A stretch of DNA of 54,743 nt, taken from contig JANXPR010000473.1 of assembly GCA_025357215.1 (NCBI GenBank), positions 1 to 54,743 on the forward strand, read 5' to 3'. Under the pieces are notes generated by a model. That model saw nothing but the letters and a program-made list of their open reading frames with translations. It ran no database searches and had not been told where the DNA came from. Positions 34,678-47,583 of this stretch are shown one piece after another (position 1 is the stretch's first letter; the number at the start of each line of letters is the position of its first letter). The stretch is from Acidobacteriaceae bacterium (GTDB lineage Bacteria; Acidobacteriota; Terriglobia; Terriglobales; Acidobacteriaceae). A program made the position numbers and the translations under genes.

Positions 34678-34751
34678 CAAAAGTTTCAGCCCAGTGGCTG
34701 ACAACCATGTTTTACCGCCAGGTTCTGGGTAGAATTGAGCCATCAGGAAAG

Positions 34752-34785
34752 CCCGCTGCACGGCAAGCAGCGGGTCTTCCGTTTA
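34752..34785 (+). terminator. Weak terminator-like hairpin after the selenoprotein gene
   Basis: CCCGCTGC-acggcaa-GCAGCGGG followed by TCTTCCGTTT. The U-tract is poor. Confidence 0.3.
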
Positions 34786-34848
34786 ATGAGAACCAGTTTT
34801 TTGCGAGCGCCGCAGTCTTTTTAAAAGCGGAAAGGACCAACCAACGCG

Positions 34849-35721: not shown

Positions 35722-35724
35722 AAC

Positions 35725-35775
35725 AATCGGGTGATCTGATGATCGCGAGTGATCCGGTGATCGGGAAACCAATCC
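35725..35775. repeat. Short GTGATC-type repeat cluster
   Basis: GGGTGATCTGATGATCGCGAGTGATCCGGTGATCGGG, immediately 3' of proC. Confidence 0.6.
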
Positions 35776-35825
35776 CACCGTGGAGACGCGGAGGCACGGA
35801 GAAGACCTGGGCAGCGCAACGTTTC

Positions 35826-35875
35826 CGCAATTTTCAATTTTGGCAATTCCGGCGATTTTGGCAATTCTGCAAGGA
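35826..35875. repeat. Short GGCAATT-type repeat cluster
   Basis: GCAATTTTCAATTTTGGCAATTCCGGCGATTTTGGCAATTCTGC. Similar GGCAATT motifs occur at 25107-25122. Confidence 0.6.
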
Positions 35876-35908
35876 GTTAGCTATCCTGCATACCTCCCAC
35901 CCTTTCCC

Positions 35909-35937
35909 TTGCCCAACCGTCCATCCTTATATATAGT
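35909..35937 (+). promoter_or_regulatory. Candidate sigma70 promoter TTGCCC-17-TATAGT
   Basis: The -35 box is at 35909-35914 and the -10 box at 35932-35937. The leader-peptide ATG lies only 9 nt downstream. Confidence 0.45.
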
Positions 35938-35946
35938 AATGACCTG

Positions 35947-36030
35947 ATGTTTACTCCTGTCGCCAACATGGCCATGTGCTGTCACACCATGGCTATGCGT
36001 GTGTTCACACAAAGGCAGACAGGTTCATAA
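35947..36030 (+). CDS. Met/Cys-rich leader peptide (27 aa) of a putative transcription attenuator
   Basis: MFTPVANMAMCCHTMAMRVFTQRQTGS* has 5 Met and 2 Cys in the first 17 residues. An intrinsic terminator follows 25 nt later. Confidence 0.55.
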   Translation: MFTPVANMAMCCHTMAMRVFTQRQTGS

Positions 36031-36055
36031 GCAAAGATTCATTCAGCAATTTTTG

Positions 36056-36092
36056 AACCCGCTGCCTCAGGGCAAGCGGGTTTTGTGCTTTT
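36056..36092 (+). terminator. Intrinsic terminator (attenuator) in the 5' leader of the ThrC-paralogue operon
   Basis: AACCCGCTGCC-TCAG-GGC(A)AGCGGGTT followed by TTGTGCTTTT. It lies about 95 nt upstream of ATG 36188. Confidence 0.65.
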
Positions 36093-36187
36093 GGGCCGGA
36101 AGAATCGGACTAAAGCAAGCTAGCAGACAGCGCAGCCGACGAGACATACCTGAGAGCAGCAGAAAACCGAGAGAAGATAAAAAGATC

Positions 36188-37522
36188 ATGAGCAATCAAG
36201 CCAGCACCAAGCCGAAACCGACGCAATTCTACGAACTGCGATGTCGCGAATGCCATACGCCGTGGGGCAACCAGCCGATTTCCTTCTGCCAGAAATGTTT
36301 CGCTCCGCTGGAAGTAGTGTACGACTGGGCGAGCATCAAGCCGCTAATCAGTCGCGACGAAATTGCCCGCCGCGGCACCACGCTGTGGCGCTACAAGGAA
36401 CTGCTTCCGCTTCCCGATGAATACGACGCTTCGCTTCCAGTGGGCTTCACGCCCCTGGTAAAAGCCGCGAACCTGGGTGACGCTCTTCCCGGCGGCAGCG
36501 CGCGCAACAAATCGTTGTACCTAAAAAATGACGCTTCCTGTTTCCCCACGTTGAGCTTCAAGGACCGCGTGGTGGCCGTGGCTCTGGCGCAGGCGCGCAA
36601 CTTCGGGTTTGAAGTCGTCAGTTGCTCTTCCACCGGCAACCTGGCGAACGCCGTTGCGGCGCAAGCCGCGCGCGGCGGATTCAAAGCCTGCGTGTTCATC
36701 CCGTCTGATCTGGAGTCCGCCAAAGTCTTGGGCACGGAGGTCTACGGCGCGCAGATCGTCCGCATTGCCGGCAATTATGACCACGTGAATCGCCTGTGCT
36801 CGCAGATCGCGGACAAACACCGCTGGGGATTTGTGAACGTAAACCTGCGGCCATACTATGCCGAAGGCTCGAAGACCGTAGGTTATGAAATTGCCGAACA
36901 ACTCGGCTGGCGCCTGCCGGACAACGTTGTCGTCCCCATGGCCGGCGGGTCTTTGATTACGAAAATCTACAAGGCGTTCAAAGAACTGGTAGAACTGGGC
37001 CTGGTGGAAGCCAAGAACGTCAAGTTCTTTGGCGCGCAAGCCACCGGCTGCAGCCCAATCAGTACTGCCGTTAAAGCCGGACGCAACGAGATCCAGCCGC
37101 AGAAGCCGGCAACAATTGCGCGCTCGCTGGCCATCGGCAACCCGGCGGACGGATTCTACGCGGCCCGCACTATCGCCAGCACCGGCGGCTGGGCGGAAGA
37201 CGCAAGCGATCCGGAAATTGTGGACGGCATCGCTCTGCTGGCCGAAACCGAAGGCATCTTCACGGAGACCGCGGGCGGCGTGACCGTGGCTTCCGCGCGC
37301 AAGCTCTACGCGCAAGGCCGCATCAAGCCGGAGGAAACTACCGTGCTCTGCATCACCGGCAACGGACTCAAGACCACCGACGCACTCGTCGGACGTTATG
37401 AAGCTTCCGAGCCCATCGCGCCAAAACTGGCGGCGCTTGAAGAATATCTTGAACAAAAACTGGTTGGCGTCTATGAAGCGTTTGGCGAAGCCCGCGCCGG
37501 AGCGCGTGGAGGTGTGCTGTGA
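36188..37522 (+). CDS. Threonine-synthase-family PLP enzyme with N-terminal zinc ribbon (paralogue; candidate sulfur-carrier-dependent homocysteine/cysteine synthase)
   Basis: CRECH...CQKC zinc ribbon and PLP-lysine context FPTLSFKDRVVAVAL, with ThrC-like sequence throughout. Start set at ATG 36188 because the track's upstream extension overlaps the leader and terminator. Confidence 0.85.
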   Translation: MSNQASTKPKPTQFYELRCRECHTPWGNQPISFCQKCFAPLEVVYDWASIKPLISRDEIARRGTTLWRYKELLPLPDEYDASLPVGFTPLVKAANLGDALPGGSARNKSLYLKNDASCFPTLSFKDRVVAVALAQARNFGFEVVSCSSTGNLANAVAAQAARGGFKACVFIPSDLESAKVLGTEVYGAQIVRIAGNYDHVNRLCSQIADKHRWGFVNVNLRPYYAEGSKTVGYEIAEQLGWRLPDNVVVPMAGGSLITKIYKAFKELVELGLVEAKNVKFFGAQATGCSPISTAVKAGRNEIQPQKPATIARSLAIGNPADGFYAARTIASTGGWAEDASDPEIVDGIALLAETEGIFTETAGGVTVASARKLYAQGRIKPEETTVLCITGNGLKTTDALVGRYEASEPIAPKLAALEEYLEQKLVGVYEAFGEARAGARGGVL

Positions 37523-37791
37523 GCGTTACCGTTTCAATTCCGTCGGCCTTCCGGCGGCACACAGAAGGCCTGGATCGCTTTGATGCATCCGCGGCGAACA
37601 TTAATGAACTCCTGGACGTTCTGGGCAATCGCTTCCCTGAACTCAAGCCGCACCTGCGCGATGAGCAAGGCAACGTCCGGCGCTTTCTGAATATTTACGT
37701 CAACGACGAAGACATCCGTTTTCTGGACAAGGACTACAAGTTCGCCGAAGGCGATGACGTAACGCTAGTGCCATCAATTGCAGGGGGGTAG
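37519..37791 (+). CDS. MoaD/ThiS-family ubiquitin-like sulfur-carrier protein ending in Gly-Gly
   Basis: 90 aa ending ...DDVTLVPSIAGG*. Its GTG start overlaps the upstream stop (GTGA), which suggests translational coupling. Confidence 0.85.
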   Translation: MSVTVSIPSAFRRHTEGLDRFDASAANINELLDVLGNRFPELKPHLRDEQGNVRRFLNIYVNDEDIRFLDKDYKFAEGDDVTLVPSIAGG

Positions 37792-37858
37792 GGCGAGTAT
37801 CGCTTACTGATTCGGCGGATTTACGGGTCGGATTGGAGCCACTTCGCTTCTAGCCTCT

Positions 37859-38094
37859 GTCATACTGAGCGCCGCTCGAGCGCGCCATGCAATGCGAGAG
37901 CAAGTCGAAGTATCCCGAGAATGTTTGATCGACGATGAAGATTCAGGGAGTTTCACCGAATCTTCCTGACGAAACAAGCCTTGGGCGCGACTGGATGGTG
38001 AGAACTCCCCGCTGCAGTATCGTCGAGGAAACATCCTCGGGATCTTTCGACTTCGCTCCGCCTGCTAACGTAGCGTCGCTACGCTCAAGATGAC
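37859..38094. repeat. Pair of ~65-bp imperfect inverted repeats (dispersed repeat family) between convergent operons
   Basis: Arm 1 (37859-37925) runs GTCATACTGAGCG...AAGTCGAAGTATCCCGAGAATGTT. The reverse complement of arm 2 (38030-38094) runs GTCATCTTGAGCG...AAGTCGAAAGATCCCGAGGATGTT. Each arm has an internal palindrome. Confidence 0.7.
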
Positions 38095-38173
38095 AGGGGG
38101 CAACGATTGGCATTGGTGTTCATAGGCCCGAATGCCTTCCGCAAAACGCTGCGCGGATGCGGAGCGTAAGAAT

Positions 38174-38992
38174 CTACGCCAGCAACTCCAGGCGCTTCAC
38201 GTCGCTTCGGTTTTCGTCTGATTCCGCCAGTACTGGCGGAAGAAATTCACGCGCATCAATTCCTTGCTCGCCCGGCACGCGTCGCGCGACTTCGCCCACA
38301 ATCAAAATGGCCGGCGCGGCCACGCCACCGGCAAACGGCAAATCCAGTAAAGACATGAAGCATGTTTTCTGGTTGGCGCGCCCTGCGCTGGAGATCAGGA
38401 CCACGGGCGCGTTGCAATCCACGCCGGCTTCCATCAATTCGCGCGCTGTCTTGTTGTAGTCCGGTCCCGGCATGTAGACGGCAAAAGTTGTGCGCTGGGG
38501 ATCAAGCCCCGGGGTTCGGAGCTTGTCGCCACGGATGTTGTGTCCGGTAACGATCGCCAGCGCTGACGCCGAGTTGCGATCGGTGAGCGTGATGCCCGCC
38601 GTGGAAGCCGCCGCCGATGCCGCCGTAACGCCCGGCACGATTTCATAGGCTACGCAGGCCTTGCGCAGCGCGTCGAGTTCTTCACCCAGTCGTCCGAAAA
38701 CCGCAGGATCACCGGACTTGAGACGCACCACGGCCTTGCCCCGGCGCGCGTGCCAGATCATGAGAGCGTTAATCTGGGCTTGGTTGATTTGACCCTGACT
38801 GTTCGTCCGGTTGCCGCAACGTTTGCCAACGTTCACAATTCTGGCATCAGGCGCGGCTAGGGCGAGAATCTCCGGGGTCACCAGATCGTCATGCAAAACG
38901 ACCTGGGCCGCGCGTAACACTGCTGCGGCCCGCACCGTGAGCAAATCAGCCGAGCCTGGCCCGGCGCCTACGAGATGGACTTTCCCCGGCAC
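38174..38992 (-). CDS. cobA: Uroporphyrinogen-III C-methyltransferase (SUMT)
   Basis: VHLVGAGPGSADLLTVRAA...VVLHDDLV and VVRLKSGDPAVFGR. Confidence 0.92.
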   Translation of the reverse strand: MPGKVHLVGAGPGSADLLTVRAAAVLRAAQVVLHDDLVTPEILALAAPDARIVNVGKRCGNRTNSQGQINQAQINALMIWHARRGKAVVRLKSGDPAVFGRLGEELDALRKACVAYEIVPGVTAASAAASTAGITLTDRNSASALAIVTGHNIRGDKLRTPGLDPQRTTFAVYMPGPDYNKTARELMEAGVDCNAPVVLISSAGRANQKTCFMSLLDLPFAGGVAAPAILIVGEVARRVPGEQGIDAREFLPPVLAESDENRSDVKRLELLA

Positions 38993-39067
38993 TTAGTCGT
39001 GCTTCTCTCCAGCGCTTTCGCGCTTGTTTTCTTCGAGCATCCACGCACTTTTCTTTCTAACGAGAAC

Positions 39068-39289
39068 TTAGGCGCTCTTCATTTTTCGGGGAACGCTCAC
39101 GCGGCCACCTTCATATGAAACGCTACGCGCTTTTGCGAGAAGTGCGCTCTTCGTCCAGCCACTGTTCCACGGCCGAAAGAATGCGGCCACCAGTTGGTCC
39201 ACACCGCCGATCATGTGCAGACCTTCGTGCTGGTGCTCTTTCAATGCTTCGCGAATCTTGGTTTCCAATGGGGTTGCTTTCAGACTCAT
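39068..39289 (-). CDS. Small hypothetical protein (73 aa) inside the siroheme/sulfite reductase operon
   Basis: Start set at the internal ATG 39289 (MSLKATPLETKIREALKEH...), with GAGAGGTG just upstream. No recognised domain. Confidence 0.5.
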   Translation of the reverse strand: MSLKATPLETKIREALKEHQHEGLHMIGGVDQLVAAFFRPWNSGWTKSALLAKARSVSYEGGRVSVPRKMKSA

Positions 39290-39326
39290 GTTCACCTCTC
39301 GTTTCGGTTCACGTACTTTAGTTGGT

Positions 39327-39908
39327 TCACTCACTAACAAAAGACTTCGGCCTGCATAGTGCAATCAGATGCAGCAACTGCTTGCGGCGTTCGCCAGCCG
39401 GGAGTACATGGCGGAGGGTTGTCCGTATGCGCCCCAGCCACTCGGCGAATGGGCCAAACTCCGGCCCGTACTGCCGTTCCAAATTTTTTCGCACTTGCTG
39501 GGCCAGCGCCGGACTTTGTCCGCCGGTGGAAATGGCGATCTGAAACTCACCGCGGCTAACCACGGATGGCGTGTAGTAATCGCAGTATGCGGGATCATCC
39601 ACGGCATTGCCCAAAGCGCCGGCTTGCTGCGCGTCTTGATAGACTGCCCGATTTACGGCTTCCAATTCTGTGGCGCCGATCACCAGGAAAAAGTGACGCG
39701 CCATGCCAGCCTGGTACTCGGTTTCTTTGTGCTTGAGTAGGCCTTGCGCTGCCCACTGGGCGATGCGCGGCGAGATGCGCGGCGAAACAACGGTCACGTC
39801 CGTGGCCGAGCGCAACACGCCTTCCAGCTTTTCTTCGCCGATGTTTCCGCCGCCGACAACCAATACCTTGCGGCCTTCGAGTTTGAGAAAAATCGGATAG
39901 AGGGCCAT
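39327..39908 (-). CDS. Precorrin-2 dehydrogenase / sirohydrochlorin ferrochelatase (CysG N-terminal-type, SirC-like)
   Basis: MALYPIFLKLEGRKVLVVGGGNIGEEKLEGVL, a Rossmann-type motif typical of the siroheme synthase N-domain. Confidence 0.88.
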   Translation of the reverse strand: MALYPIFLKLEGRKVLVVGGGNIGEEKLEGVLRSATDVTVVSPRISPRIAQWAAQGLLKHKETEYQAGMARHFFLVIGATELEAVNRAVYQDAQQAGALGNAVDDPAYCDYYTPSVVSRGEFQIAISTGGQSPALAQQVRKNLERQYGPEFGPFAEWLGRIRTTLRHVLPAGERRKQLLHLIALCRPKSFVSE

Positions 39909-39916
39909 GTTTGTTT

Positions 39917-41689
39917 TTATCCTTCCGCTCCGTGGGGTACGCGACCCGGAGCTGCATCGCGCGCCACGGGAGCAACCGTTTCGCCCGCGAGGAACGTCCG
40001 AAGCTCCGCGTCCGAATGCCGCAAAAAAAACTTGCGCAGATTTTCGTTGGCTTCGCGCCGGACAAGATATTCGCGCAGCAAGCGCTCAATGGCGTCTGGG
40101 GCTTCCGTGGCCACGCAGCGGTAACCGACCGGCCTGCCAAACGCCGCGTATTCACCGACGGCGCCGCCCAGGCAGAAGTAGTAGGCGTCCTGCATGCGGC
40201 CATCGACTTTTAACTTCTTGCCTTCCAGACCGATGTCCGCGATGCGATGCTGCCCGCAGCTGTTGGGGCAACCGGTTACGTTGATCTTGAGCGGCTGGTC
40301 GAATTCCGGGAGACGTTCTTCCAGTTCGTCCACGAGCCAGCGCGTGTAGGACTTGGTTTCCGTGATGGCCAGCTTGCAGAACTCCGTTCCGGTGCAAGCC
40401 ACCGCGCCGCGCCAGAACGGCGAAGCTGTAACGTGAAGTCCGGCGTTTTCCAGGCCCTGAACCACGGCTTGCGTTCTTGCCTGAGGCACGTTCACGATCA
40501 CCAGGTTCTGCGCGATGGTAGCGCGCAGGTCGCCGGAACCGTATTGCTCGGCGAGATCGGCGGCGGCACGCAGTTGCTCCGGCGAGATGCGACCGCGCAA
40601 CACAGCAGCGCCAACGTAAAAAAGCCCCGGCAGTTTTTGCGGATGGACGCCGGCATGATCGCGAAATACATCTGCCGGAATTTCTTCCGGCACGCCCGGC
40701 GCGAGTTTGAATCCCAGCCGGCGCTCAACTTCGGCGAGAAAGCTTTCCGCCGTCCAGCCGTGTTGCAGGAAAAGAAATTTCAGACGGGCGCGTTCGCGAT
40801 TTTGGCGCAATGGCTCCGCGTTGCGAAAAATCTCGCTGATGGCTTTGGTCACCGGCAACATCTGTTCCCAGGCGACAAAAGCGTTCAGGCGCACGGCGAG
40901 GTGCGGATCAGTGGAAAGGCCGCCGACGACGCGGACGGAAAAGCCGATTTCCTTTTTGCCACCCTCGTCCTCACCACGAACTTCGCGTACGGCCGGAGTG
41001 AAAGCCAGATCGTTGATTTCTGGATAAGAGCACCAGTCGCGGCAACCGCTCACGCTGATTTTGTACTTGCGCGGAAAGTTGTAATAATCCGCGCTGCCGA
41101 CCAACAGCTTTTCCATCTGGGCCACAAGTGGCGAGGCGTCACAGATTTCGTGCGCGTCCAAACCAGCCAGCGGGCAGCCAGTGATGTTGCGAGTAACATC
41201 ACCGCATGTGGCAAGCGAAGTTAGACCCACGGCATCCAGTTGCTCCAAAACGTCCGGCAGATCCTGCACGGTGATCCAATGGAGCTGAATGTTCTGACGC
41301 ACCGTGATGTCCGCGGAACCGCGCGCGTATTTTTCTGACAATTCGGCGATCGTACGCAACTGGCGGGCACTGACGATCCCGTTACCTAGACGTATGCGCA
41401 GCATGAGGAAAGGCAGGGCTTTGCCTTCACCGTTGGCACCGCCGAGAACACCAGCGCCATCACCTTGCGTGTACACGCCCCACCAGCGGAAGTACGTCTT
41501 GATCCAGGCTTCAGGAACTTCGGTGAAGCCTCCGCGCGCAAAGCTCCGGATTTCTTCCAGACACTCCCAGGGATTTTTTTCGCGCTTGAGCCGCTCGGCC
41601 TTCTGCGCCTTGCTTTCCTTCACTACAGTACCGGGTGTGCCGATGGCCTGTGTGACCGTTGCTTGTGATCCGTTTATTTCCAAACCCAT
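39917..41689 (-). CDS. sir: Assimilatory sulfite reductase (ferredoxin-type nitrite/sulfite reductase, siroheme/4Fe-4S)
   Basis: Cluster-binding motifs CTGTEFCKLA and TGCPNSCGQH, with duplicated NIR_SIR-type sequence. Start set at ATG 41689 because the track's TTG 41728 lies in the terminator U-tract. Confidence 0.9.
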   Translation of the reverse strand: MGLEINGSQATVTQAIGTPGTVVKESKAQKAERLKREKNPWECLEEIRSFARGGFTEVPEAWIKTYFRWWGVYTQGDGAGVLGGANGEGKALPFLMLRIRLGNGIVSARQLRTIAELSEKYARGSADITVRQNIQLHWITVQDLPDVLEQLDAVGLTSLATCGDVTRNITGCPLAGLDAHEICDASPLVAQMEKLLVGSADYYNFPRKYKISVSGCRDWCSYPEINDLAFTPAVREVRGEDEGGKKEIGFSVRVVGGLSTDPHLAVRLNAFVAWEQMLPVTKAISEIFRNAEPLRQNRERARLKFLFLQHGWTAESFLAEVERRLGFKLAPGVPEEIPADVFRDHAGVHPQKLPGLFYVGAAVLRGRISPEQLRAAADLAEQYGSGDLRATIAQNLVIVNVPQARTQAVVQGLENAGLHVTASPFWRGAVACTGTEFCKLAITETKSYTRWLVDELEERLPEFDQPLKINVTGCPNSCGQHRIADIGLEGKKLKVDGRMQDAYYFCLGGAVGEYAAFGRPVGYRCVATEAPDAIERLLREYLVRREANENLRKFFLRHSDAELRTFLAGETVAPVARDAAPGRVPHGAEG

Positions 41690-41724
41690 GGTTCCCACTT
41701 TCTCGAACGCTTGCCTGGTTTCTC

Positions 41725-41770
41725 CCAAAAAAGCAAAAGGCCCATCACCTTGTCTGGCGATGGGCCCTTC
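41725..41770 (-). terminator. Intrinsic terminator (attenuator) in the 5' leader of the sulfite reductase operon
   Basis: The minus strand reads GGGCCCATC-gccagacaaggt-GATGGGCC followed by TTTTGCTTTTTTGGG, about 35 nt upstream of ATG 41689. Confidence 0.65.
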
Positions 41771-41791
41771 CTAAAGTTGAATAATGGCTTT

Positions 41792-41872
41792 TTAGGTAGC
41801 GGCTTCATTGGCCAGAGACACGAGTGTCGCCTTACAGCAACACATACACATGTCCTGGCAAAGAATCCGCAT
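41792..41872 (-). CDS. Cys-rich leader peptide (26 aa) of a putative attenuator
   Basis: MRILCQDMCMCCCKATLVSLANEAAT* has 5 Cys and 3 Met in the first 13 residues. It lies between a promoter-like element and the terminator. Confidence 0.55.
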   Translation of the reverse strand: MRILCQDMCMCCCKATLVSLANEAAT

Positions 41873-41878
41873 GAATCC

Positions 41879-41906
41879 AAGCTAACCGCGAACGAAAAAG
41901 TGTCAA
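41879..41906 (-). promoter_or_regulatory. Candidate sigma70 promoter TTGACA-16-TAGCTT
   Basis: On the minus strand, TTGACA is at 41906-41901 and TAGCTT at 41884-41879. The leader ATG lies 6 nt downstream of the -10 box. Confidence 0.4.
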
Positions 41907-41957
41907 GGCGGAACTTGCCCGGCAACACTTACATTCACTTGCTTTGGCGAATATTCA

Positions 41958-43169
41958 TTAATGAGTTTTTGCGACTCCCACGCCACTTGTTGCATCGCCA
42001 GATCGGGTTGTTTGCGGCGATGCGCTGTTCCTGGTTTTGATTACCGCTTGTATCGGCTCAAGGAACCGGCTGTATTTAGCCAAGGTGACTTGATCGTTGG
42101 AAGCGAGTGCGGCTTGCACGGCTTTTTGCGTTGCCGGACTGACAATTTCAAGCCTTCCAACAAAAACGCGAACCGTCTGCGCCGGAGATGGCGCGATCGT
42201 CAGAGGCAGAATGCTGTCCACGAAGGATGGCGGCACAATGTAAAACAAGCGGGAGCCTTCTTCAAACCACGTGCTGCGCCAAGTCTCAAGCATGGCATGC
42301 GCTTCGTCAGGATAAAGGCCGTTTTCAACCAGGATACTCTCCAGGTCGGCATAGAGCGATTCGACGGAGGAAGTCAGTTCTGGAAAATCCAGCAGGGTGG
42401 TCTCCTGAAGCGGACGTGACAGGCGATAGCCAACTTTATCTCCACGGCGCTCGAACAGGATGGCTGCCGGAATCTCTGCCTTGATCAATGGTTTGACCAA
42501 CAACCTGCCCTGAGGATCGATCTGGGCCGCGACCGGAACCCGCATCGCGGACACTCCACGATAGAAGAGGAATTTCTCATGCTGGTCACCCTTGGAACTG
42601 TTCACGCGGAGCGGCGTAGCTGAAGTTGCGCGGGCGGCATAGTAGTGATTATCACTGTCGCTGGTTTCGCGCAGGAAAGTGGCGGGGCCGGGCTCCAGGG
42701 AAACAGATTTCCATGCAAGAGTGGCGTTGCCCGTTCCAGAAAGCGTTCCGCCAGTCCATGCGGTATTCGGAGTAACGCGGGCGTGCGGGTACCATTCCGT
42801 GAAGAGTCCGTTGGCAAACGCCACTTGCACGGATACCGTCATGCTTCGCGGCGAGTAGAAATAAAGGACCGGCGTTTCCATCCGTACCGTGCCCCGTAAA
42901 CTTACCTTGAACCCTTCGGTCCGAAAATGTTCAACGAACCCAGGCAGATTCGGTCCGCTGAGCGGCGACCACTCAACGGCCAACCCGTCAACGCCGGCGA
43001 CGGAAGTAAACGTACCCCATTCGTGGACCGTGAGTGCGGGATCAACTATCCGCGATTGGGCGTTCCCACACTGTGCCAGCAGCCCCGAGAGGATGATCAC
43101 CAGCGTCACGAAACGTAATACGAAACGAAATGAAAAATGAAGAAGGTGATTGTGCTGGGAAGTGTTCAT
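41958..43169 (-). CDS. Hypothetical secreted protein
   Basis: Start set at MNTSQHNHLLHFSFRFVLRFVTLVIILSGLLAQCGNAQS (signal peptide). No recognised domain. Confidence 0.6.
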   Translation of the reverse strand: MNTSQHNHLLHFSFRFVLRFVTLVIILSGLLAQCGNAQSRIVDPALTVHEWGTFTSVAGVDGLAVEWSPLSGPNLPGFVEHFRTEGFKVSLRGTVRMETPVLYFYSPRSMTVSVQVAFANGLFTEWYPHARVTPNTAWTGGTLSGTGNATLAWKSVSLEPGPATFLRETSDSDNHYYAARATSATPLRVNSSKGDQHEKFLFYRGVSAMRVPVAAQIDPQGRLLVKPLIKAEIPAAILFERRGDKVGYRLSRPLQETTLLDFPELTSSVESLYADLESILVENGLYPDEAHAMLETWRSTWFEEGSRLFYIVPPSFVDSILPLTIAPSPAQTVRVFVGRLEIVSPATQKAVQAALASNDQVTLAKYSRFLEPIQAVIKTRNSASPQTTRSGDATSGVGVAKTH

Positions 43170-43455
43170 GTTCGCTACCGCCTTTTCCAAAAGCCTTTCG
43201 CTTTTCGAACAAGGACGCGCCATCTGCGCAAACTGTTAGCGAGCGAAGGCGATTCGCCGATTTTGGTTTGGTTGAAGCGGGCAAGTTATTAGGACGGCTT
43301 AATCTCCAGCGAGAAATGGCAGCCCGGGCGAAGCCCTGTGGGCGAAAAAAACGCGGCTATTACGCTAGCTACAAATCCATCTAACAGCATGAAAACTCAA
43401 GGGAATCGCGCATGCACGAAGGAGTTACCTCGGTTCGCGTCGTCCACGCTTTTCC

Positions 43456-43484
43456 TTGACTCCATCGCACAGCAAAGCTATAGT
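43456..43484 (+). promoter_or_regulatory. Candidate sigma70 promoter TTGACT-17-TATAGT
   Basis: The -35 box is at 43456-43461 and the -10 box at 43479-43484. The leader ATG lies 9 nt downstream. Confidence 0.5.
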
Positions 43485-43493
43485 TCAGGCTAG

Positions 43494-43595
43494 ATGCACC
43501 GGAATCAGAACATCGCGATGGCCAAGACATGCATGTGCACAACAGGCACAGGCACAACTACATCCATGCGATTTTCTGGCGAGCCGGTGAGATAA
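43494..43595 (+). CDS. Thr-rich (plus Met/Cys) leader peptide (33 aa) of the thr operon attenuator
   Basis: MHRNQNIAMAKTCMCTTGTGTTTSMRFSGEPVR* has 7 Thr within 12 residues, plus a CMC motif. Confidence 0.6.
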   Translation: MHRNQNIAMAKTCMCTTGTGTTTSMRFSGEPVR

Positions 43596-43623
43596 GAACT
43601 AAGCAGCAATCATAAAGTTCCTT

Positions 43624-43663
43624 AACCCACTCGCCCAATCAAGCGAGTGGGTTTTTCGCTTTT
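43624..43663 (+). terminator. Intrinsic terminator (attenuator) upstream of thrB
   Basis: AACCCACTCGC-ccaatcaa-GCGAGTGGGTT followed by TTTCGCTTTT. The track ORF start at 43647 falls inside it. Confidence 0.7.
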
Positions 43664-43751
43664 ATGCGGTGAGGATTTGGAGACATCCCCGGGGATGAAT
43701 GGCGTAAGTCCTTATTTTTCGGGGATGACCGGGGTAGGGGTACAAATAGGC

Positions 43752-44729
43752 ATGAGCAAAATTGATCACAGCTTTGACAGCAGCGCCGTTCGCGACACTG
43801 GTTACGGATGGCGCGCGGTAGTCCCGGCGACTTCAGCTAATCTGGGCTGCGCGTTTGACTGCGGAGGACTCGCGCTCAAGCTGTACCTGAAAGCCCTGTT
43901 CGTCCCCGGTGAAGGCGAGCAGCTGGCTCTGGAATACAAAGGCGTGACCCCGGACCGTTTCCCCACCGACGACTCCAACCTGATCCTACATGCTTTGCGT
44001 TTTGCGGCAGCCGAACTTGACGTGCCTCCTCCCGCCGGAAAAGTCTTTGTCGAAAGTGAAATCCCTATCAGCGTTGGACTGGGCAGCAGCGCTGCCGCGG
44101 TGATCGCCGGCCTGCTTCTGGGCGCACGCTACTCCGGAAAAGACGCCCCGGCGGAAGACATACTGCGTTGGGCGGAAAAGATTGAAGGCCATATCGACAA
44201 CGCGGCAGCCGCATATCACGGCGGACTGGTGCTGGCCCTGTCCAACAACGTGGAAAAAGTGCACTCGCTGAAAACGGATTTCCCGGAGAGCATCCGCCTG
44301 GTGGTGGTAAGTCCATCAGTAACTGTGCCCACGCACGAAGCACGACAGGTGCTGCCCAAGGCTTATGAACGAGCGGACGTCCTGCACACGCTGCAACGCA
44401 CCGCGCTGTTGGCCGCAACCTGCTTCTCCGGATATTTCGATCTCTTCCCTGAACTCTTCCATGACAAATTGCACCAGCCGTACCGGCAAAAACTGGTTCC
44501 CGGTATTGAGCGCTGCCTGAAATACCGGCGTGAAGGCTTGTTGGGAGTGGCCATCAGCGGATCAGGCTCGTCAGTAATTGCGTTCGTGACGAAGCACGAC
44601 GAACAGATCGCGGAAGATTTGCAGGAACTTTTCAATCTGGAAGGCGTGCAGACGGAAGCACGATCTACTTCAGCCGACAATCACGGCGCATGGGTGACAC
44701 GCGAACCGGTGGAAGCAAACAGAACGTAA
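43752..44729 (+). CDS. thrB: Homoserine kinase
   Basis: VPATSANLGCAFDCGGLAL and GLGSSAAAVIAG (GHMP kinase motif). Start set at ATG 43752, downstream of the terminator. Confidence 0.9.
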   Translation: MSKIDHSFDSSAVRDTGYGWRAVVPATSANLGCAFDCGGLALKLYLKALFVPGEGEQLALEYKGVTPDRFPTDDSNLILHALRFAAAELDVPPPAGKVFVESEIPISVGLGSSAAAVIAGLLLGARYSGKDAPAEDILRWAEKIEGHIDNAAAAYHGGLVLALSNNVEKVHSLKTDFPESIRLVVVSPSVTVPTHEARQVLPKAYERADVLHTLQRTALLAATCFSGYFDLFPELFHDKLHQPYRQKLVPGIERCLKYRREGLLGVAISGSGSSVIAFVTKHDEQIAEDLQELFNLEGVQTEARSTSADNHGAWVTREPVEANRT

Positions 44730-44794
44730 AGCTTCGGCAGTTAGAAATTCAAGACAAGGAAGCTGAGAGTTTTTTGCAAGTCAGGGAGCATGGC

Positions 44795-46264
44795 ATGAGC
44801 AGCAGACGCTTGATCGTGATGAAATTTGGGGGCACGTCCGTGGGCAACGCGGAACGTATCCGCCAGTGTGCGCAGATTGTGAGTCAGGCGGCGCAGCAGG
44901 ACCGCATTGTGGTGGTGGTATCCGCCATGGCCGGTATCACAGATCTGATCTTCAAGACTATTGATGCCGCGCGGCAGGGCGACGCCGCTTCTACTGAGAC
45001 GAACCTGAAAAAGTTTGAGGCGCTGCACCGCGAGTTGATGGCCGAGTTGTTTGGCGCTTCCGCGCCCGCCGCTGTTGAGTTTCTGGCACAGGTAGTTGCC
45101 CAGTTACAGAAATCAAGCGGCGCGTTGCTTGCATTGCGGACGGACATCTCTGCACAGACCGCCGACTCGCTGGTCGCACTGGGTGAACGCATCACAGCTT
45201 GGGCATTAGCGAATTACCTTCAACAATCTGGCAGTCCGGCCGAATTTGTGGCCGCGGAAAAAGTAATCGCCACGGACGGCAACTTTGGCAACGCCGCTCC
45301 GGACATGGAAGGCACGCGAGCCAACTGCCAGTCCGAATTACTGCCGATCCTGGATCGCGGCGCTTCGCCCATCGTGGCAGGTTACAGCGGCGCTGCTCCT
45401 GGCGGCCAAACCACCACGCTGGGACGCGGCGGTTCAGATTATTCGGCTACGATCATCGGCGCGGCGGCCGGAGCCGACGAAGTCTGGATATGGACTGATG
45501 TTGACGGCGTCCTAACGGCCGATCCGCGCATTTGTCCGGACGCCACTACACTGCCGGAAATCACTTTTCCTGAAGCTATCGAGCTCGCGTATTACGGCGC
45601 CAAAGTTATCCATCCCAAAGCGTCTTATCCCGCGGCGGACGCCGGCTTCCCGGTGTGGATCAAGAATTCGTTTCGCCCGGAAGTCCAAGGCACCAAAATC
45701 ACCAATGACGCAACACCCTGGAATTCTCCGGTCAAGTCCGTGACGTGCGTGAAGAACGCAACGCTCATCACCATGGTCACCCGACGCGACGTGCATCCGG
45801 TAGATCTTTGGGGACGGCTGTTCCTGCGGCTTGGGCAGGAACAGGTTGAAGTACTGTTTGCCACGCAGTCTTCTCCGGAACATGCGCTTGGTCTAGTGTT
45901 GCGCAAAGAAGACAGCGCGCGAGTGCTCAAACTGATCAACACCACGTTCCGCATCGAACTGGCGCAAGGCGTGTTGTTGCCGGTGGAGGTGAACAACGAA
46001 ATTGCCGTGGTGGCCGTGCTGGGCGAATCCATGAAAGGCACCTGCGGCATTCTGGGACGCGTGTTTTCTGCCGTGGCCCGCGAAGAAGTAAGCGTGATTG
46101 CCGTGGCCCAGGGCGCCAGCGAGTTGAGCATATGCTTTGCCGTACCTGCTCCGGCAGCTTCGCAGGTGGTGCGCGCGGTGCATAATGAGTTTTGCGGCAA
46201 GGCGGATTTCTCAGTGCCGGTATGCCTGCGTCCCACGGCAGCGGCCGCTTCAGGAGCGCGATGA
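44795..46264 (+). CDS. lysC: Aspartate kinase
   Basis: LIVMKFGGTSVGNAERI, LGRGGSDYSATIIGAA, and C-terminal ACT-like repeats. SD AGGGAG precedes ATG 44795. Confidence 0.92.
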   Translation: MSSRRLIVMKFGGTSVGNAERIRQCAQIVSQAAQQDRIVVVVSAMAGITDLIFKTIDAARQGDAASTETNLKKFEALHRELMAELFGASAPAAVEFLAQVVAQLQKSSGALLALRTDISAQTADSLVALGERITAWALANYLQQSGSPAEFVAAEKVIATDGNFGNAAPDMEGTRANCQSELLPILDRGASPIVAGYSGAAPGGQTTTLGRGGSDYSATIIGAAAGADEVWIWTDVDGVLTADPRICPDATTLPEITFPEAIELAYYGAKVIHPKASYPAADAGFPVWIKNSFRPEVQGTKITNDATPWNSPVKSVTCVKNATLITMVTRRDVHPVDLWGRLFLRLGQEQVEVLFATQSSPEHALGLVLRKEDSARVLKLINTTFRIELAQGVLLPVEVNNEIAVVAVLGESMKGTCGILGRVFSAVAREEVSVIAVAQGASELSICFAVPAPAASQVVRAVHNEFCGKADFSVPVCLRPTAAAASGAR

Positions 46265-47583
46265 AAACTACGTTACCGAATCCGGCTGGGATTATTTCGT
46301 CCGCGGGAGCGCATGCACTGCGTTGCGTTCATTGCGGCGTGGTGCAGGCCACCACGGACCGAATGTTCCGCTGCCACGAATGTTCCGAACTTGTGGAAGT
46401 GATCTATCCCGAGTGGTCCGGCGCCGGACGCGAATTCGGCCTTCGCTTGAAAGAAATTTGGCGGGAACGCAAAGCTTCCACTCTTCCTGAAGATCAGAGC
46501 GGAGTTTGGCGCTTCCGTGAACTTCTTCCGCAGGTGGACGGCAAACACATCGTCACCATGTGCGAAGGAAATACGCCGTTGCTGCGGCTCACGGCCGCGG
46601 CCCGAGCGCTTGGGCTGCCTAACCTGATGGTCAAGCACCAAGGCATGAATCCAACAGGATCATTTAAAGATACAGGCATCTCCGCGGCCATCAGCGTGGC
46701 ACGCTCACAAGGCTTTTCGATTGTCTGTTGCGCTTCCACGGGAAACACGTCGGCATCTGTAGCAGCGTACGCGGCTCGCGCGGGGATCAAGAGCATCGTT
46801 CTGCTGCCCGCCGGACAAGTCACTTCCGGCAAATTGGCGCAAGCGCTGGAATATGGCGCACACGTCCTTCAACTTCACACGGATTTTGATGGCTGCCTTA
46901 CGGTGCTGCATGAAGTGGTGAACAAGTTTCCTGCTTACCTTTTGAACTCGCTCAACCCGTATCGACTGGAAGGACAAAAGACCGTTGCGTTCGAGATGAT
47001 GGAGCAACTGGACTGGCAAGCGCCGGATCACGTGATCGTCCCTGGCGGCAACTTGGCCAACAGCTCGGCGCTGGGCAAAGGATTTCTTGAGCTGCAGCAG
47101 CTTGGACTCATCCGTTCGCTGCCGAAGATTTCCATCATCCAGGCCGCGGGCGCAAATCCTCTTGTCCGCACCATGCGCGAGAACGGTGGAACGGAACTCA
47201 TCCGCGTGAACGCGGAGACGCGCGCCACGGCCATCCGCATTGGCAACCCAGCATCGTGGCGCAAAGCGGCAACGATCCTGAAGACCACCGGCGGCGCGTG
47301 CGAAGACGTAACGGAAAAAGAAATTGCGCAAGCTAAAGCTGAGTTGGGCGCGGAAGGCGTGGGATGTGAACCGGCGTCGGCGGCAACATTGGCAGGGCTG
47401 AAGAAACTCGTCCATGCAGGCTTTGTGAAGGCCGGGGAAAGCGCAGTGCTCGTACTCACCGGACACATGCTTAAGGACGTGGACTACATGCTGAGCGACC
47501 AGGTCAAGCGCGTTTACGGTCCCATGGACGCAGCTCCGGCCACGGTGATCAAGACATTGGAGACCATCTATGCGGGGAACTGA
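46261..47583 (+). CDS. thrC: Threonine synthase (with N-terminal zinc ribbon)
   Basis: CVHCG...CHEC zinc ribbon and PLP-lysine context NPTGSFKDTG. The ATGA start overlaps the lysC stop. The gene lies in the thr operon. Confidence 0.9.
   Translation: MKTTLPNPAGIISSAGAHALRCVHCGVVQATTDRMFRCHECSELVEVIYPEWSGAGREFGLRLKEIWRERKASTLPEDQSGVWRFRELLPQVDGKHIVTMCEGNTPLLRLTAAARALGLPNLMVKHQGMNPTGSFKDTGISAAISVARSQGFSIVCCASTGNTSASVAAYAARAGIKSIVLLPAGQVTSGKLAQALEYGAHVLQLHTDFDGCLTVLHEVVNKFPAYLLNSLNPYRLEGQKTVAFEMMEQLDWQAPDHVIVPGGNLANSSALGKGFLELQQLGLIRSLPKISIIQAAGANPLVRTMRENGGTELIRVNAETRATAIRIGNPASWRKAATILKTTGGACEDVTEKEIAQAKAELGAEGVGCEPASAATLAGLKKLVHAGFVKAGESAVLVLTGHMLKDVDYMLSDQVKRVYGPMDAAPATVIKTLETIYAGN

Follow-up and report, generated by a model that had tools for sequence, protein, structure and literature searches.

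The 54.7 kb window, by which we mean the whole stretch of DNA analyzed, carries three sets of biosynthetic genes that are each preceded by a short leader (L1, L2 and L3). The leaders have in common a sigma-70-like promoter, an open reading frame (sORF) of 26-33 codons and, 21-28 nt past its stop codon, a strong intrinsic terminator. Their components are as follows.

35909..35937 (+): L1 promoter, with a -35 box TTGCCC at 35909, a 17 nt spacer and a -10 box TATAGT ending at 35937.
35947-36030 (+): L1 leader ORF, peptide MFTPVANMAMCCHTMAMRVFTQRQTGS.
35956..35964 (+): L1 region 1, CCTGTCGCC, pairing with region 2 in ribosome-free RNA (MFE fold).
36013..36027 (+): L1 region 2, AGGCAGACAGGTTCA, ending at the stop codon; its partners are region 1 or the terminator 5' arm.
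36056..36092 (+): L1 intrinsic terminator, AACCCGCTGCC-TCAG-GGCAAGCGGGTT (stem 36056-36082) and a U-run.
36188..37791 (+): L1 downstream genes, a ThrC-like PLP enzyme (36188-37522) and a ThiS/MoaD-like carrier with a GG end (37519-37791).
41879..41906 (-): L2 promoter, TTGACA (41906-41901), a 16 nt spacer and TAGCTT (41884-41879).
41872-41792 (-): L2 leader ORF, peptide MRILCQDMCMCCCKATLVSLANEAAT, with five Cys codons, of which three are TGT, the rarer one.
41849..41861 (-): L2 region 1, TTGCCAGGACATG, immediately 5' of the Cys codons (MFE fold).
41791..41816 (-): L2 region 2, TCTGGCCAATGAAGCCGCTACCTAAA.
41727..41770 (-): L2 intrinsic terminator, 15-bp stem GAAGGGCCCATCGCC / GGTGATGGGCCTTTT (stem 41770-41735) and a U-run.
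38174..41689 (-): L2 operon, a NirA/Sir-type sulfite reductase (41689-39917, ATG at 41689), a siroheme synthase N-terminal-domain protein (39908-39327), a small ORF and a uroporphyrinogen-III C-methyltransferase (38992-38174).
43456..43484 (+): L3 promoter, TTGACT at 43456, a 17 nt spacer and TATAGT ending at 43484.
43494-43595 (+): L3 leader ORF, peptide MHRNQNIAMAKTCMCTTGTGTTTSMRFSGEPVR.
43497..43516 (+): L3 region 1, CACCGGAATCAGAACATCGC (MFE fold).
43578..43591 (+): L3 region 2, GGCGAGCCGGTGAG.
43624..43665 (+): L3 intrinsic terminator, AACCCACTCGC ... GCGAGTGGGTT (stem 43624-43653) and a U-run.
43752..48937 (+): L3 operon, thrB (ATG at 43752), aspartate kinase, thrC and homoserine dehydrogenase.

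Judging from its context, the gene pair behind L1 is probably a MetM/MetO pair for homocysteine synthesis (10.1101/2024.10.14.618325). The L1 sORF contains four internal Met and two Cys codons, and Met plus Cys are enriched relative to the window's own codon usage (P = 1.7e-4), as they are in the L2 sORF (P = 1.2e-5). In the L3 sORF, seven Thr codons (six ACA and one ACT, both rare here) are accompanied by three internal Met and two Cys codons (Thr plus Met plus Cys, P = 2.2e-5). Where Thr or Cys is presumed to be sensed, rare codons are used (ACA/ACT and TGT, respectively), and the amino-acid mixes differ from leader to leader: Met with or without Cys in L1, Cys in L2, and Thr plus Met/Cys in L3. 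An earlier note on this DNA had described a common C-M-C core; the strings AMCC, MCMCCC and CMC are indeed present, but the core is not conserved among relatives. Its suggestion that the elements stem from duplication finds weak support, as does a common descent of the three leaders, in cross-family nhmmer E-values of ~1e-3. Among the pathways it had assigned to the set, sulfur-carrier-dependent sulfur incorporation and the Asp-to-homoserine/threonine branch are supported, but L2 precedes genes for sulfite reductase and siroheme synthesis rather than for sulfate reduction as a whole.

The -10 box ends 9, 6 and 9 nt before the leader ATG in L1, L2 and L3, within the 6-9 nt range previously claimed, and the distance peaks at 6-9 nt in all families. 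For instance, it is 7-9 nt in 53 of the 59 scored L1 relatives and 6-9 nt in 44 of 61 scored loci of the sulfite reductase (sir) leader family, with a mode of 6, while most L3 relatives have TTGACT..TATAGT 8-10 nt 5' of the start codon (11 nt in L161). Direct reading of the upstream 18-mers confirmed that none of the three window leaders has an SD-like 4-mer at -16 to -4; such a 4-mer occurs in 3 of 61 leaders of the L1 family. For a transcript that starts exactly at the A of the ATG, the expected -10 gap is 6-7 nt. The gaps of L1 and L3 (9 nt) are longer, and a leader of 1-3 nt is therefore as probable as none at all. This promoter geometry suggests that the three transcripts are leaderless or nearly so. 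At their other end the ORFs stop, as had been noted, shortly before the terminator, 25, 21 and 28 nt from its stem.

We scanned both strands of the window for this arrangement. Only at L1, L2 and L3 does a TAnnnT box lie 6-9 nt 5' of an ATG whose sORF is followed by a strong, compact terminator and a gene. At 22140-22072, a further sORF is preceded at 7 nt by a TAnnnT box and accompanied by a terminator-like hairpin; it was taken as a chance match, presumed to lie inside a long ORF. The enrichment test that the earlier note had proposed does not refute its reading: in 1.85 Mb of related DNA, searched blindly for a promoter, an ATG within 5-10 nt of it, a short ORF, a terminator and a gene, all 153 matches, counting alternative-start and alternative-frame calls at the same sites, fall at leaders of sir, thrB, proC or the ThrC-like gene. 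Likewise, 69 of the 82 matches to a Cys-rich sORF plus terminator in 80 loci are the sir leader.

The leaders are conserved in their enriched residues. In about 62 loci, all metagenomic, the L1 family keeps the pattern MLLSVSNMAMCC..MAM.VFTPRQKGS; M-A-M...M-A-M is conserved while Cys is variable, and some variants without Cys still keep Met. In 68 of 76 relatives, nearly all of them from Terriglobia, sulfite reductase has a Cys-rich sORF (at least three Cys in six residues) on its 5' side, compared with 3.7% of random windows, and the gene order of the L2 operon is identical in relatives L162 and L163. An HMM of L3 found 16 related loci, and the leader peptides that could be read in 12 relatives conserve the Thr run with flanking Met/Cys.

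The leaders could also be structured RNAs with a metabolite or protein ligand (riboswitches or protein-dependent attenuators). The ORFs would then be incidental, and the ATG/TGY strings would reflect RNA motifs, self-complementary CAUG blocks for example. Regions 1-3 are very highly conserved in their nucleotides, and the Met codons of L1 make both arms of a 10-bp hairpin (ATGGCCATG / ATGGCTATG). We nevertheless regard this explanation as very unlikely. The leaders have no Rfam match even at E<=10, and indels in the L1 ORF among relatives are mostly multiples of three. Across Terriglobia, the sir subfamilies differ entirely in nucleotides and in the rest of the peptide (MCMCCC, CCCACCCC, CCRCC), yet the Cys run stays in frame, the ORF still starts right at the promoter and its stop codon still lies beside region 2. 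Moreover, in four independent families the enriched amino acid fits the pathway encoded downstream, with Cys, Met and Thr here and Pro (with proC) in relatives.

Cys-rich micropeptides exist, and the sORFs might instead encode functional Cys/Met-rich peptides (metal- or redox-active, or RiPP precursors) that merely happen to be sited upstream of operons. C-terminal residues are kept within clades (VSLA..E.AT, VFTPRQKGS, SGEP), and trans-acting leader peptides such as peTrpL are known. The C-terminal codons coincide with region 2, however, and we attribute their conservation to RNA constraint for that reason. Between clades the peptides are unrelated save for the enriched residue, no modification or export genes are adjacent, and each sORF is directly followed by a terminator and then the cognate biosynthetic operon. 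We consider a peptide function the least probable of the explanations weighed here.

In MFE folds, the three loci form an ORF-spanning hairpin and the terminator (z = -3.0, -6.8 and -6.1). A segment at the 3' end of each ORF (region 2) can pair either with the 5' part of the ORF (region 1) or with the terminator 5' arm, and this layout matches the 1:2 / 2:3 / 3:4 design of the classical attenuator. The hairpin arms of L1 are the two ATGGCNATG blocks within its ORF; the consensus 1:2 helix is paired in 92% of alignment cells, with a register one column off in the window sequence, and was not recovered by RNAalifold. L2 region 2, in which TCTCTGGC is invariant among close relatives, is complementary to region 1, whose GCCAG is near-invariant among them, and to GCCAGA at the top of the terminator 5' arm. 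L3 region 2 resembles the terminator 3' arm GCGAGTGGG, and its partner is CTCGCC in the 5' arm.

When all RNA 5' of and under a stalled ribosome was masked and the molecule was cut before the terminator 3' arm, a 2:3 antiterminator folded in all three leaders (-17.9 kcal/mol in L1, -20.6 to -23.2 in L2 and -16.8 to -17.4 in L3) and also in divergent sir-leader subfamilies (-23 to -35 kcal/mol). Compared with dinucleotide shuffles, the duplex of region 2 with the terminator arm reached p<=0.05 in 11 of 11 L3 family members (window z = -3.5), in 72% of the L1 family (mean z -2.2) and in 49% of the L2 family (mean z -1.7); the window's own duplex is marginal for L1 (p = 0.087) and L2 (p = 0.057). 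The 2:3 pairs of L1 form in 85.6% of alignment cells, and in 28-58% when slid. Swapping region 2 between sir subfamilies revealed a modest advantage of the native pairs (-18.5 vs -16.1 kcal/mol, z = -0.7). Covariation showed no excess over shuffles for the terminator conformer and a small one for the antiterminator (0.053 vs 0.035, six double-change cells); since the paired segments hardly vary, the compensatory signal is weak.

Weak covariation of the 2:3 helix is what one might see if the sORFs sensed amino acids by stalling but acted through translation (unmasking of the downstream start, as in mycobacterial Ms5788A) or Rho-dependent polarity, with a minor or different role for the hairpin and U-run. 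The best-studied polycysteine leaderless sORF does act translationally (10.1101/834739), and a simple detector found no terminator in a few sir-leader relatives. Still, a GC-rich stem followed by a U-run is present at all three window elements and in most relatives, and the L1 terminator stem is essentially invariant across 60 relatives. Region 2 complements the terminator 5' arm, not the downstream start region, and the window terminators lie 46-95 nt 5' of the structural gene start and therefore do not overlap its ribosome-binding site. A non-terminator output is thus unlikely, though less so than the other two alternatives.

We conclude, with a probability of roughly 0.8, that L1, L2 and L3 are ribosome-mediated transcription attenuators on leaderless or nearly leaderless ORFs. 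Their interpretation as leader-peptide attenuators in the earlier note is supported by sORFs, enriched codons, promoter spacing and terminators that are kept in relatives and by an antiterminator that can form in all three. From this anatomy we infer the course of events at the leaders. The RNA would start at the ATG or 1-3 nt 5' of it, and a ribosome would translate it as it emerges. With plentiful cognate aminoacyl-tRNAs, the ribosome would reach the stop codon and cover region 2, the terminator (3:4) would form and the RNA would end after about 140-170 nt. In untranslated RNA, region 1 would pair with region 2 and the terminator would form too. If the cognate tRNA is poorly charged, the ribosome would stall at the regulatory codons and mask region 1; the freed region 2 would pair with the terminator 5' arm before the 3' arm is made, and RNA polymerase would read into the operon. 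The leader of the sulfite reductase/siroheme operon would sense Cys, that of the MetM/MetO-like pair chiefly Met and less so Cys, and that of thrB-ask-thrC-hom Thr together with Met/Cys. We know of little experimental precedent for Met sensing through the charging of elongator tRNA-Met.

This is a known kind of system, leader-peptide transcription attenuation with leaderless sORFs, as in Actinobacteria. Streptomyces has leaderless leader peptides with Rho-independent terminators, including a predicted metL peptide ...RCMCRRMCAF (PMC8079986), mycobacteria have polycysteine leaderless sORFs (10.1101/834739), and in Rhodobacterales a Cys-Cys uORF and a terminator precede cysS (PMC8632094). About 13% of acidobacterial genes are predicted to be leaderless (PMC3160421). 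As the earlier note supposed, we found no earlier description of such leaders for Acidobacteriota in the literature. Because all three leaders would depend on tRNA charging, they would form a co-regulated set that needs no regulatory protein. A textbook mechanism would operate in a soil acidobacterium, a member of an almost unstudied phylum, as a set of switches for its sulfur, methionine and threonine biosynthesis operons.

The earlier note had claimed three leader elements between 35909 and 43663, and we located each of them directly in the sequence. L1, with a Met/Cys-rich short leader ORF (sORF), precedes a pair of ThrC-like and ThiS-like genes; L2, with a Cys-rich sORF, precedes the sir/siroheme operon; and L3, with a Thr/Met/Cys-rich sORF, precedes thrB-ask-thrC-hom. 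The enriched codons, terminators, predicted antiterminators and conservation in relatives support their interpretation as leader-peptide attenuators, that is, as Cys-, Met- and Thr-type transcription attenuators on apparently leaderless transcripts that are widely conserved in Terriglobia.

Leader elements in the window
35909-35937, + strand: L1 promoter, TTGCCC-17-TATAGT, 9-nt gap to the ORF
35947-36030, + strand: L1 leader ORF, peptide MFTPVANMAMCCHTMAMRVFTQRQTGS
36056-36092, + strand: L1 terminator, hairpin AACCCGCTGCC/GGCAAGCGGGTT and U-run, 25 nt past the ORF
41906-41879, - strand: L2 promoter, TTGACA-16-TAGCTT, 6-nt gap to the ORF
41872-41792, - strand: L2 leader ORF, peptide MRILCQDMCMCCCKATLVSLANEAAT
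41770-41735 and U-run, - strand: L2 terminator, 15-bp stem, 21 nt past the ORF
43456-43484, + strand: L3 promoter, TTGACT-17-TATAGT, 9-nt gap to the ORF
43494-43595, + strand: L3 leader ORF, peptide MHRNQNIAMAKTCMCTTGTGTTTSMRFSGEPVR
43624-43653 and U-run, + strand: L3 terminator, 28 nt past the ORF

An intrinsic terminator separates each leader ORF from the first gene of its operon; its stem (-18 to -27 kcal/mol, with a U-run) lies 21-28 nt past the stop codon, and most relatives keep it. A 421-aa ORF (window 41958-43223, - strand) is located between the L2 and L3 promoters. It gave no Pfam or NCBIfam match, and among 80 genome loci its counterpart was present only in the closest relative, locus L001 (65% identity). 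The L2 terminator might be taken as the terminator of this upstream ORF. We rejected this and assigned it to the leader, because the leader promoter lies between the two and because most relatives have the terminator but not the ORF. Most of the close relatives with this synteny have sir and thrB leaders that diverge directly. The window also contains a second hairpin with a T-run (GTGAGGATTTGGAGACATCCCCGGGGATGAATGGCGTAAGTCCTTATTTTT, 43669-43715, + strand), placed between the L3 terminator and thrB; parts of it (GGGGATGAAT..GTAAGTCC) recur in three sampled loci of relatives (L001, L002 and L161) and are absent from other relatives.

With codon usage in the window itself as the reference (Met 1.8%, Cys 1.5%, Thr 6.3%), the leader ORFs are enriched in the expected codons, with binomial P values of 1.7e-4 for L1, 1.2e-5 for L2 and 2.2e-5 for L3. 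The sensing codons of L3 and L2 are rarer synonyms: the Thr codons of L3 are six ACA (14% usage) and one ACT (13% usage), with no ACC or ACG, and three of the five Cys codons of L2 are TGT (22% usage). At least two consecutive Cys codons, which characterise the sORFs of the mycobacterial Cys ribulon, occur in L1 (CC) and L2 (CCC). Because L3 has C-M-C only, it is better described as a Thr leader.

Downstream genes were identified using Pfam and NCBIfam. L1 is followed by a ThrC-like PLP enzyme (36188-37522), which is 34% identical to the operon ThrC and whose closest solved structures are threonine synthases, and then by a ThiS/MoaD-family protein with the C-terminus ...SIAGG. In the MetM/MetO route, a ThrC-homologous enzyme and a sulfur carrier convert O-phosphohomoserine to homocysteine (10.1101/2024.10.14.618325); judging from its context, the pair after L1 is a putative MetM/MetO system for homocysteine synthesis. 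The L2 operon encodes a NirA/Sir-type sulfite reductase (41689-39917), a protein with a siroheme-synthase N-terminal domain and a uroporphyrinogen-III C-methyltransferase, and the L3 operon comprises thrB, aspartate kinase, thrC and homoserine dehydrogenase. With these identities, each leader's enriched codons match its pathway: those for Cys go with sulfite reduction, those for Met (and Cys) with homocysteine synthesis, and those for Thr plus Met/Cys with the L3 operon, whose product O-phosphohomoserine is likely the common precursor of Thr and Met here. Gene order is conserved among relatives (proC, ThrC-like, ThiS-like; cobA, sirC, sir; thrB, ask, thrC, hom). A small ORF of ~60-74 aa (MSLKATPLETKIREALKEHQHEGLHMIGGVDQLVAAFF..., window 39068-39292, - strand) sits between the siroheme-synthase-domain gene and cobA, and genes of 41-57 aa are called at the same position in two relatives' loci (L162 and L163).

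The earlier note had proposed comparative genomics across Terriglobia, and a comparison with relatives recovered all three leader types. The sampled loci all come from MAGs or metagenomes. For the sulfite reductase, a scan with one genome per species yielded 80 loci, nearly all from Terriglobia MAGs; the closest enzyme was 82% identical, followed by those of Candidatus Angelobacter (69-75%). An L2-type leader, here an ATG-initiated ORF in which 3 or more of 6 residues are Cys, was present in 68 of the 76 usable sir upstream regions, and 50 of the 76 had at least 4 Cys. The same thresholds were reached in 3.7% and 1.1%, respectively, of 2,996 random 430-nt windows from the same loci. The few sir loci attributed to non-acidobacterial phyla are mostly without the leader. 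Peptide sequences differ wholly between clades (for instance MR.L.Q.MCMCCC..VSLA.E.AT, ..CMCACCCCA.VCSGAGKLLT and M...CCRCC..LRA.R), and the features kept are limited to the Cys run, a start that abuts the promoter, and the terminator.

The ThrC-like protein, used as the query for L1 in a scan of metagenomes, gave 80 loci, of which ~62 carry the leader, with the consensus MLLSVSNMAMCC(R/H/C)AMAM(C/R)VFTPRQKGS. Variants such as MTTAFNMAMRNHIMGMRVSMLRQTRS keep Met while Cys is lost, so L1 is primarily a Met leader. L3-type peptides could be read in 12 relatives (for instance MQVRQNIIAMAMCLTTTSTCTPMRNSGEPSA and MRDRHNIFAMAMWTTTGTCTSTRKSGEPAA), and the L3 HMM identified 16 related loci. The ThrB protein search returned only relatives of at least 73% identity, which left distant Terriglobia beyond its reach; distant Thr-type leaders surfaced through an nhmmer cross-match. 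In two distant Acidobacteria, a different aspartate kinase (32-34% identical) follows Thr/Ile-rich sORFs and strong terminators. These Thr/Ile(/Met) leaders are located at 15598-15462 (- strand) in locus L043 and ~2050-2150 (+ strand) in locus L016, with sORFs MGMSIQNGKRITSTGIITSTRIKC... and MMRSLRVSIAMMTLISTATISATRD... and peptides ...ITSTGIITSTRI... and ...IAMMTLISTATISAT...; their codon mix resembles that of E. coli thrL. The C-M-C core that had been proposed as common to the three leaders was not conserved in relatives; the sir clades keep a Cys run and L1 variants lose Cys.

We searched the 80 loci on both strands for a Cys-rich sORF plus terminator and found 82 matches, 69 of which were the sir leader. 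Across the whole window, a TAnnnT box 6-9 nt ahead of an ATG was found together with an sORF, a strong and compact terminator and a downstream gene only at L1, L2 and L3; one extra match (sORF 22140-22072) presumably lies within a long ORF and was treated as chance. We also ran the pattern scan suggested in the earlier note on 1.85 Mb of sampled DNA from relatives, both strands, a set biased towards sir, ThrC-like, thrB and proC loci. To count as a match, a site needed a promoter score of at least 8, a -10 box 5-10 nt before the ATG, an ORF 9-50 codons long, a terminator at -14 kcal/mol or below that began no more than 70 nt away, and a second ORF, 150 aa or longer, no more than 220 nt away. 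All 153 matches were leaders of sir, ThrC-like, thrB or proC genes, or alternative-start or alternative-frame calls at these leaders, and the remaining genes in the scanned DNA (an estimated ~1,700) gave none. The attenuator reading thus withstood the scan, and on the random-window, both-strand, whole-window and 1.85-Mb controls we rejected chance occurrence of the leaders.

Other Cys-rich sORFs were seen in Terriglobia loci L047 (-, 11960), L054 (-, 11927), L029 (+, 14064), L031 (+, 11693) and L070 (+, 8611). The sORFs MQTILIKIACCCCLR and MQNILIKFACCC precede a protein with a hydrophobic N-terminal segment, putatively secreted or located in the outer membrane, and have no clear terminator, and MIKIPSQCCCCTAPCAGCCRPLCI precedes an unannotated 1114-aa protein. 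A Cys sORF with a terminator also occurs between sir and a putative PAPS/APS reductase gene (cysH, judged by eye), and L070 has an extra membrane-protein gene after the sir leader. These additional sORFs hint at a wider Cys regulon in Terriglobia.

The proximity of the -10 box to the leader ATG (6-9 nt in the window), which the earlier note had pointed out, is retained in all three families. Close sir-leader relatives carry TTGACA-N16-18 followed by a -10 box at a distance of 6-9 nt from the ATG; in some of them longer ORFs are called, with the promoter inside and pointing to an internal ATG. In the sir family, 61 loci reached a promoter score of 7 or more out of 12; the gap measures 6 nt at 24 of these loci, 7 nt at 10, 8 nt at 3 and 9 nt at 7 (44 of 61 at 6-9 nt), and several of the larger gaps arose because the scoring picked an internal ATG instead of the upstream one. 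L1-family gaps are 7-9 nt in 53 of 59 loci. In most L3-family loci TATAGT lies 8-10 nt before the ATG (before GTG in one locus, and at 11 nt in L161). The reported absence of an SD was likewise borne out: the upstream 18-mers of the three window leaders have no SD-like 4-mer at -16..-4, and such 4-mers occur in 3 of 61 L1-family leaders. A 6-nt gap is expected if transcription starts at the A of the ATG, and 9-nt gaps suggest a leader of 0-3 nt. Promoter spacing gives strong comparative support to the prediction that the transcripts are leaderless or nearly so. About 13% of Acidobacteria genes are predicted to be leaderless (PMC3160421).

We then considered the RNA as four regions, with region 1 the 5' ORF segment, region 2 the ORF 3' end and region 3 the terminator 5' arm. 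Ribosome-free folds contain an ORF-spanning hairpin and the terminator, with z = -3.0 (L1), -6.8 (L2) and -6.1 (L3). For the alternative fold, a ribosome was placed on the regulatory codons, everything 5' of its 3' edge was masked, and the RNA was cut before the terminator 3' arm; masking of the footprint only was dropped because it permitted pairs spanning the ribosome, which is physically unrealistic. In all three leaders, region 2 then paired in silico with the terminator 5' arm.

Predicted antiterminators
L1: region 2 AGGCAGACAGGTTCA, partner TGAACCCGCTGCCT, -17.9 kcal/mol
L2: region 2 TCTGGC..ATG..GCC, partner GGGC.CAT.GCCAGA, -20.6 to -23.2 kcal/mol
L3: region 2 GGCGAG..CGGTGAG, partner CCCACTCGCC, -16.8 to -17.4 kcal/mol

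This predicted 2:3 helix would exclude the terminator and would itself be excluded either by the 1:2 pairing or by a ribosome at the stop codon. The end of region 2 coincides with the stop codon or adjoins it, so that region 2 would be covered by a ribosome terminating there. Region 1 resembles region 3 (GCCAGGA and GCCAGA in L2; CCTGTCGCC and CCCGCTGCC in L1). Divergent sir subfamilies with different terminators have predicted antiterminators of -23 to -35 kcal/mol. Compared with dinucleotide shuffles, region 2 pairing reached p<=0.05 in 11 of 11 L3-family leaders (mean z -3.4), in 72% of the L1 family (mean z -2.2) and in 49% of the L2 family (mean z -1.7). On a 60-sequence L1 alignment, the share of paired cells was 93.7% for the terminated conformer and 85.6% for the antiterminator, as opposed to 26-58% for slid controls. 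Explicit-structure pair counts on this alignment revealed few compensatory changes, and RNAalifold recovered the terminator but missed the 1:2 helix; near-invariance of the paired segments left it with 0 compensatory pairs. Since pairing is high and compensatory changes are few, we claim no covariation support; energetics and conservation of pairing support the predicted alternative structures. Swapping region 2 between sir subfamilies gave a modestly positive result; the weakness of the effect is probably due to promiscuous pairing of the GC-rich arms. The Met codons of L1 also have a structural role: a 10-bp hairpin (window 35970-36000, + strand) has ATGGCCATG and ATGGCTATG as its two arms and is paired in 89% of alignment cells, so the ATG-rich pattern serves both coding and folding.

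The classical leader-peptide transcription attenuators are E. coli trpL, thrL, hisL, leuL, ilvL and pheL, and thrL senses both Thr and Ile. We know of no enterobacterial leader peptide for Cys or Met. The window elements share with the E. coli leaders a short ORF with end-product codons, exclusive 1:2, 2:3 and 3:4 pairings and an intrinsic terminator before the first gene, and the mixed sensing of thrL has a parallel in L3 (predicted Thr and Met/Cys). However, the E. coli leaders are SD-led whereas the window ORFs are apparently leaderless and lack an SD, the predicted sensed amino acids here include Cys and Met, and the leaders from Acidobacteriota have no sequence or Rfam-model similarity to the enterobacterial ones.

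The mycobacterial 'Cys ribulon' consists of leaderless polycysteine sORFs that form the first cistron of cysteine/sulfur operons (Canestrari et al., 10.1101/834739). Cys-run sORFs (apparently leaderless here), the coordination of several loci through tRNA-Cys charging alone (predicted here) and the concept of a ribosome-directed regulon are common to both systems. There is no sequence homology between them, and Met and Thr sensing (both predicted) are additional here. The characterised mycobacterial element, Ms5788A, is translational and relieves sequestration of the downstream ribosome-binding site (10.1101/834739), whereas the window elements have canonical intrinsic terminators, which lie 46-95 nt ahead of where the structural genes begin, and a predicted antiterminator in which region 2 pairs with the terminator arm. 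They are thus like the ribulon in concept but outside its mechanistic class.

Leaderless trpL, leuL and ilvL with Rho-independent terminators are known in S. lividans, where a metL (...RCMCRRMCAF) is predicted before metNIQ (PMC8079986), and Seliverstov 2005 (PMC1262725) reports predicted Cys leader peptides before actinobacterial cys operons. The Streptomyces and Corynebacterium leaders resemble the acidobacterial elements in leaderless leader-ORF transcription (apparent here), in hairpins with a U-run in several cases and in the C-M-C of metL. Streptomyces metL differs from L1 in its downstream gene, a transporter, and in lacking a clear terminator; L1 has a strong invariant terminator and precedes the MetM/MetO-like pair. 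In Rhodobacterales, uORFC-8-2 before cysS has tandem Cys codons in its first stem followed by an intrinsic terminator, as in L2, and it was read as Cys-sensing ribosome-mediated attenuation (PMC8632094). This alphaproteobacterial element is unrelated in sequence and controls a tRNA synthetase gene, whereas L2 precedes a sulfite reductase, and leaderlessness does not figure in the description consulted.

Using cmscan at gathering thresholds on the whole window, no Rfam leader family (such as Thr_leader) matched the leaders; the matches obtained were two tandem nadA riboswitches (RF03013; 16606-16717, - strand; 60.6 and 49.7 bits, above the gathering score). A permissive scan of 34500-44000 (E<=10) returned only three chance eukaryotic matches. 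In a survey, almost none of the attenuators predicted in Acidobacteriota had an associated function or annotation (PMC2965389). Consistent with the earlier note, a limited literature search found no earlier description of such leaders in this phylum, although such absence is not proof. The mechanism itself is already known as classical leader-peptide attenuation, and its leaderless form from Actinobacteria. With a textbook mechanism, what these leaders add lies in their distribution and specificity and not in principle.

In many loci, an HMM built from the L1 leaders also matched another element, 1.3-1.9 kb upstream, whose 3' half scored E = 1e-7 to 1e-8. This half comprises region 2 and the CCCGCTGCC..GGCAGCGGG terminator and is nearly the same as that of the ThrC-like leader. 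This fourth, apparently leaderless leader is an sORF (MFISPANQAHAAYPLPCAP.GGG...) before proC, with TATAGT 6-10 nt (mostly 7) before the ATG. Examples are located at L144 231-374, L084 1247-1390, L088 2484-2629 and L162 2973-3060, among others, with a conserved AAYPLP (AAYPLPC). We rejected a proC leader in the window itself: the candidate region (34690-34850) has a terminator-like hairpin (34751-34775) with a poor U-run and no matching sORF, and the window proC (34849-35721) is without the AAYPLPC leader of its relatives. The L1 HMM cross-matched one L3 leader (E = 0.0024) and one sir leader (E = 2e-4), the L3 HMM cross-matched L1 leaders at ~1e-3, and ATGGCCATGTG, which encodes A-M-A-M-C, is common to L1 and L3 relatives.

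As for the suggestion that the elements arose by duplication, the proC and ThrC-like leaders plausibly share an origin, and for the three window elements the cross-matches of ~1e-3 point to one only weakly. We tentatively raise the possibility, which we consider rather unlikely at present, that Terriglobia have a duplicating family of leaderless attenuator cassettes with a shared region-2/terminator module that was copied ahead of different amino-acid operons, and in which the sensor codons were re-written for Cys, Met, Thr/Ile and possibly Pro. The hints are the likeness of the proC and ThrC-like modules, the L1-L3 cross-matches with ATGGCCATGTG, and the distant Thr/Ile leaders.

Acidobacteriota are among the most abundant soil bacteria and their gene regulation is almost uncharted. 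The leaders would provide a concrete regulatory logic for sulfur assimilation and for methionine and threonine synthesis in Terriglobia, and would extend leaderless leader-peptide attenuation beyond Actinobacteria. Besides the phylum, three points stand out: the Cys leader is widespread, at ~90% of the sir loci in a sample that is nearly all Terriglobia; L1 is a candidate for the rare case of a leader that senses Met, and is tied to a MetM/MetO-like pathway; and a modular attenuator family is hinted at. The leaders are also simple markers for annotating sir, ThrC-like and thrB operons in metagenomes. If the cassette family is real, it would constitute a multi-amino-acid, protein-free 'ribulon' that includes a genuine Met-tRNA-sensing leader for the MetM/MetO pathway, itself described only recently.
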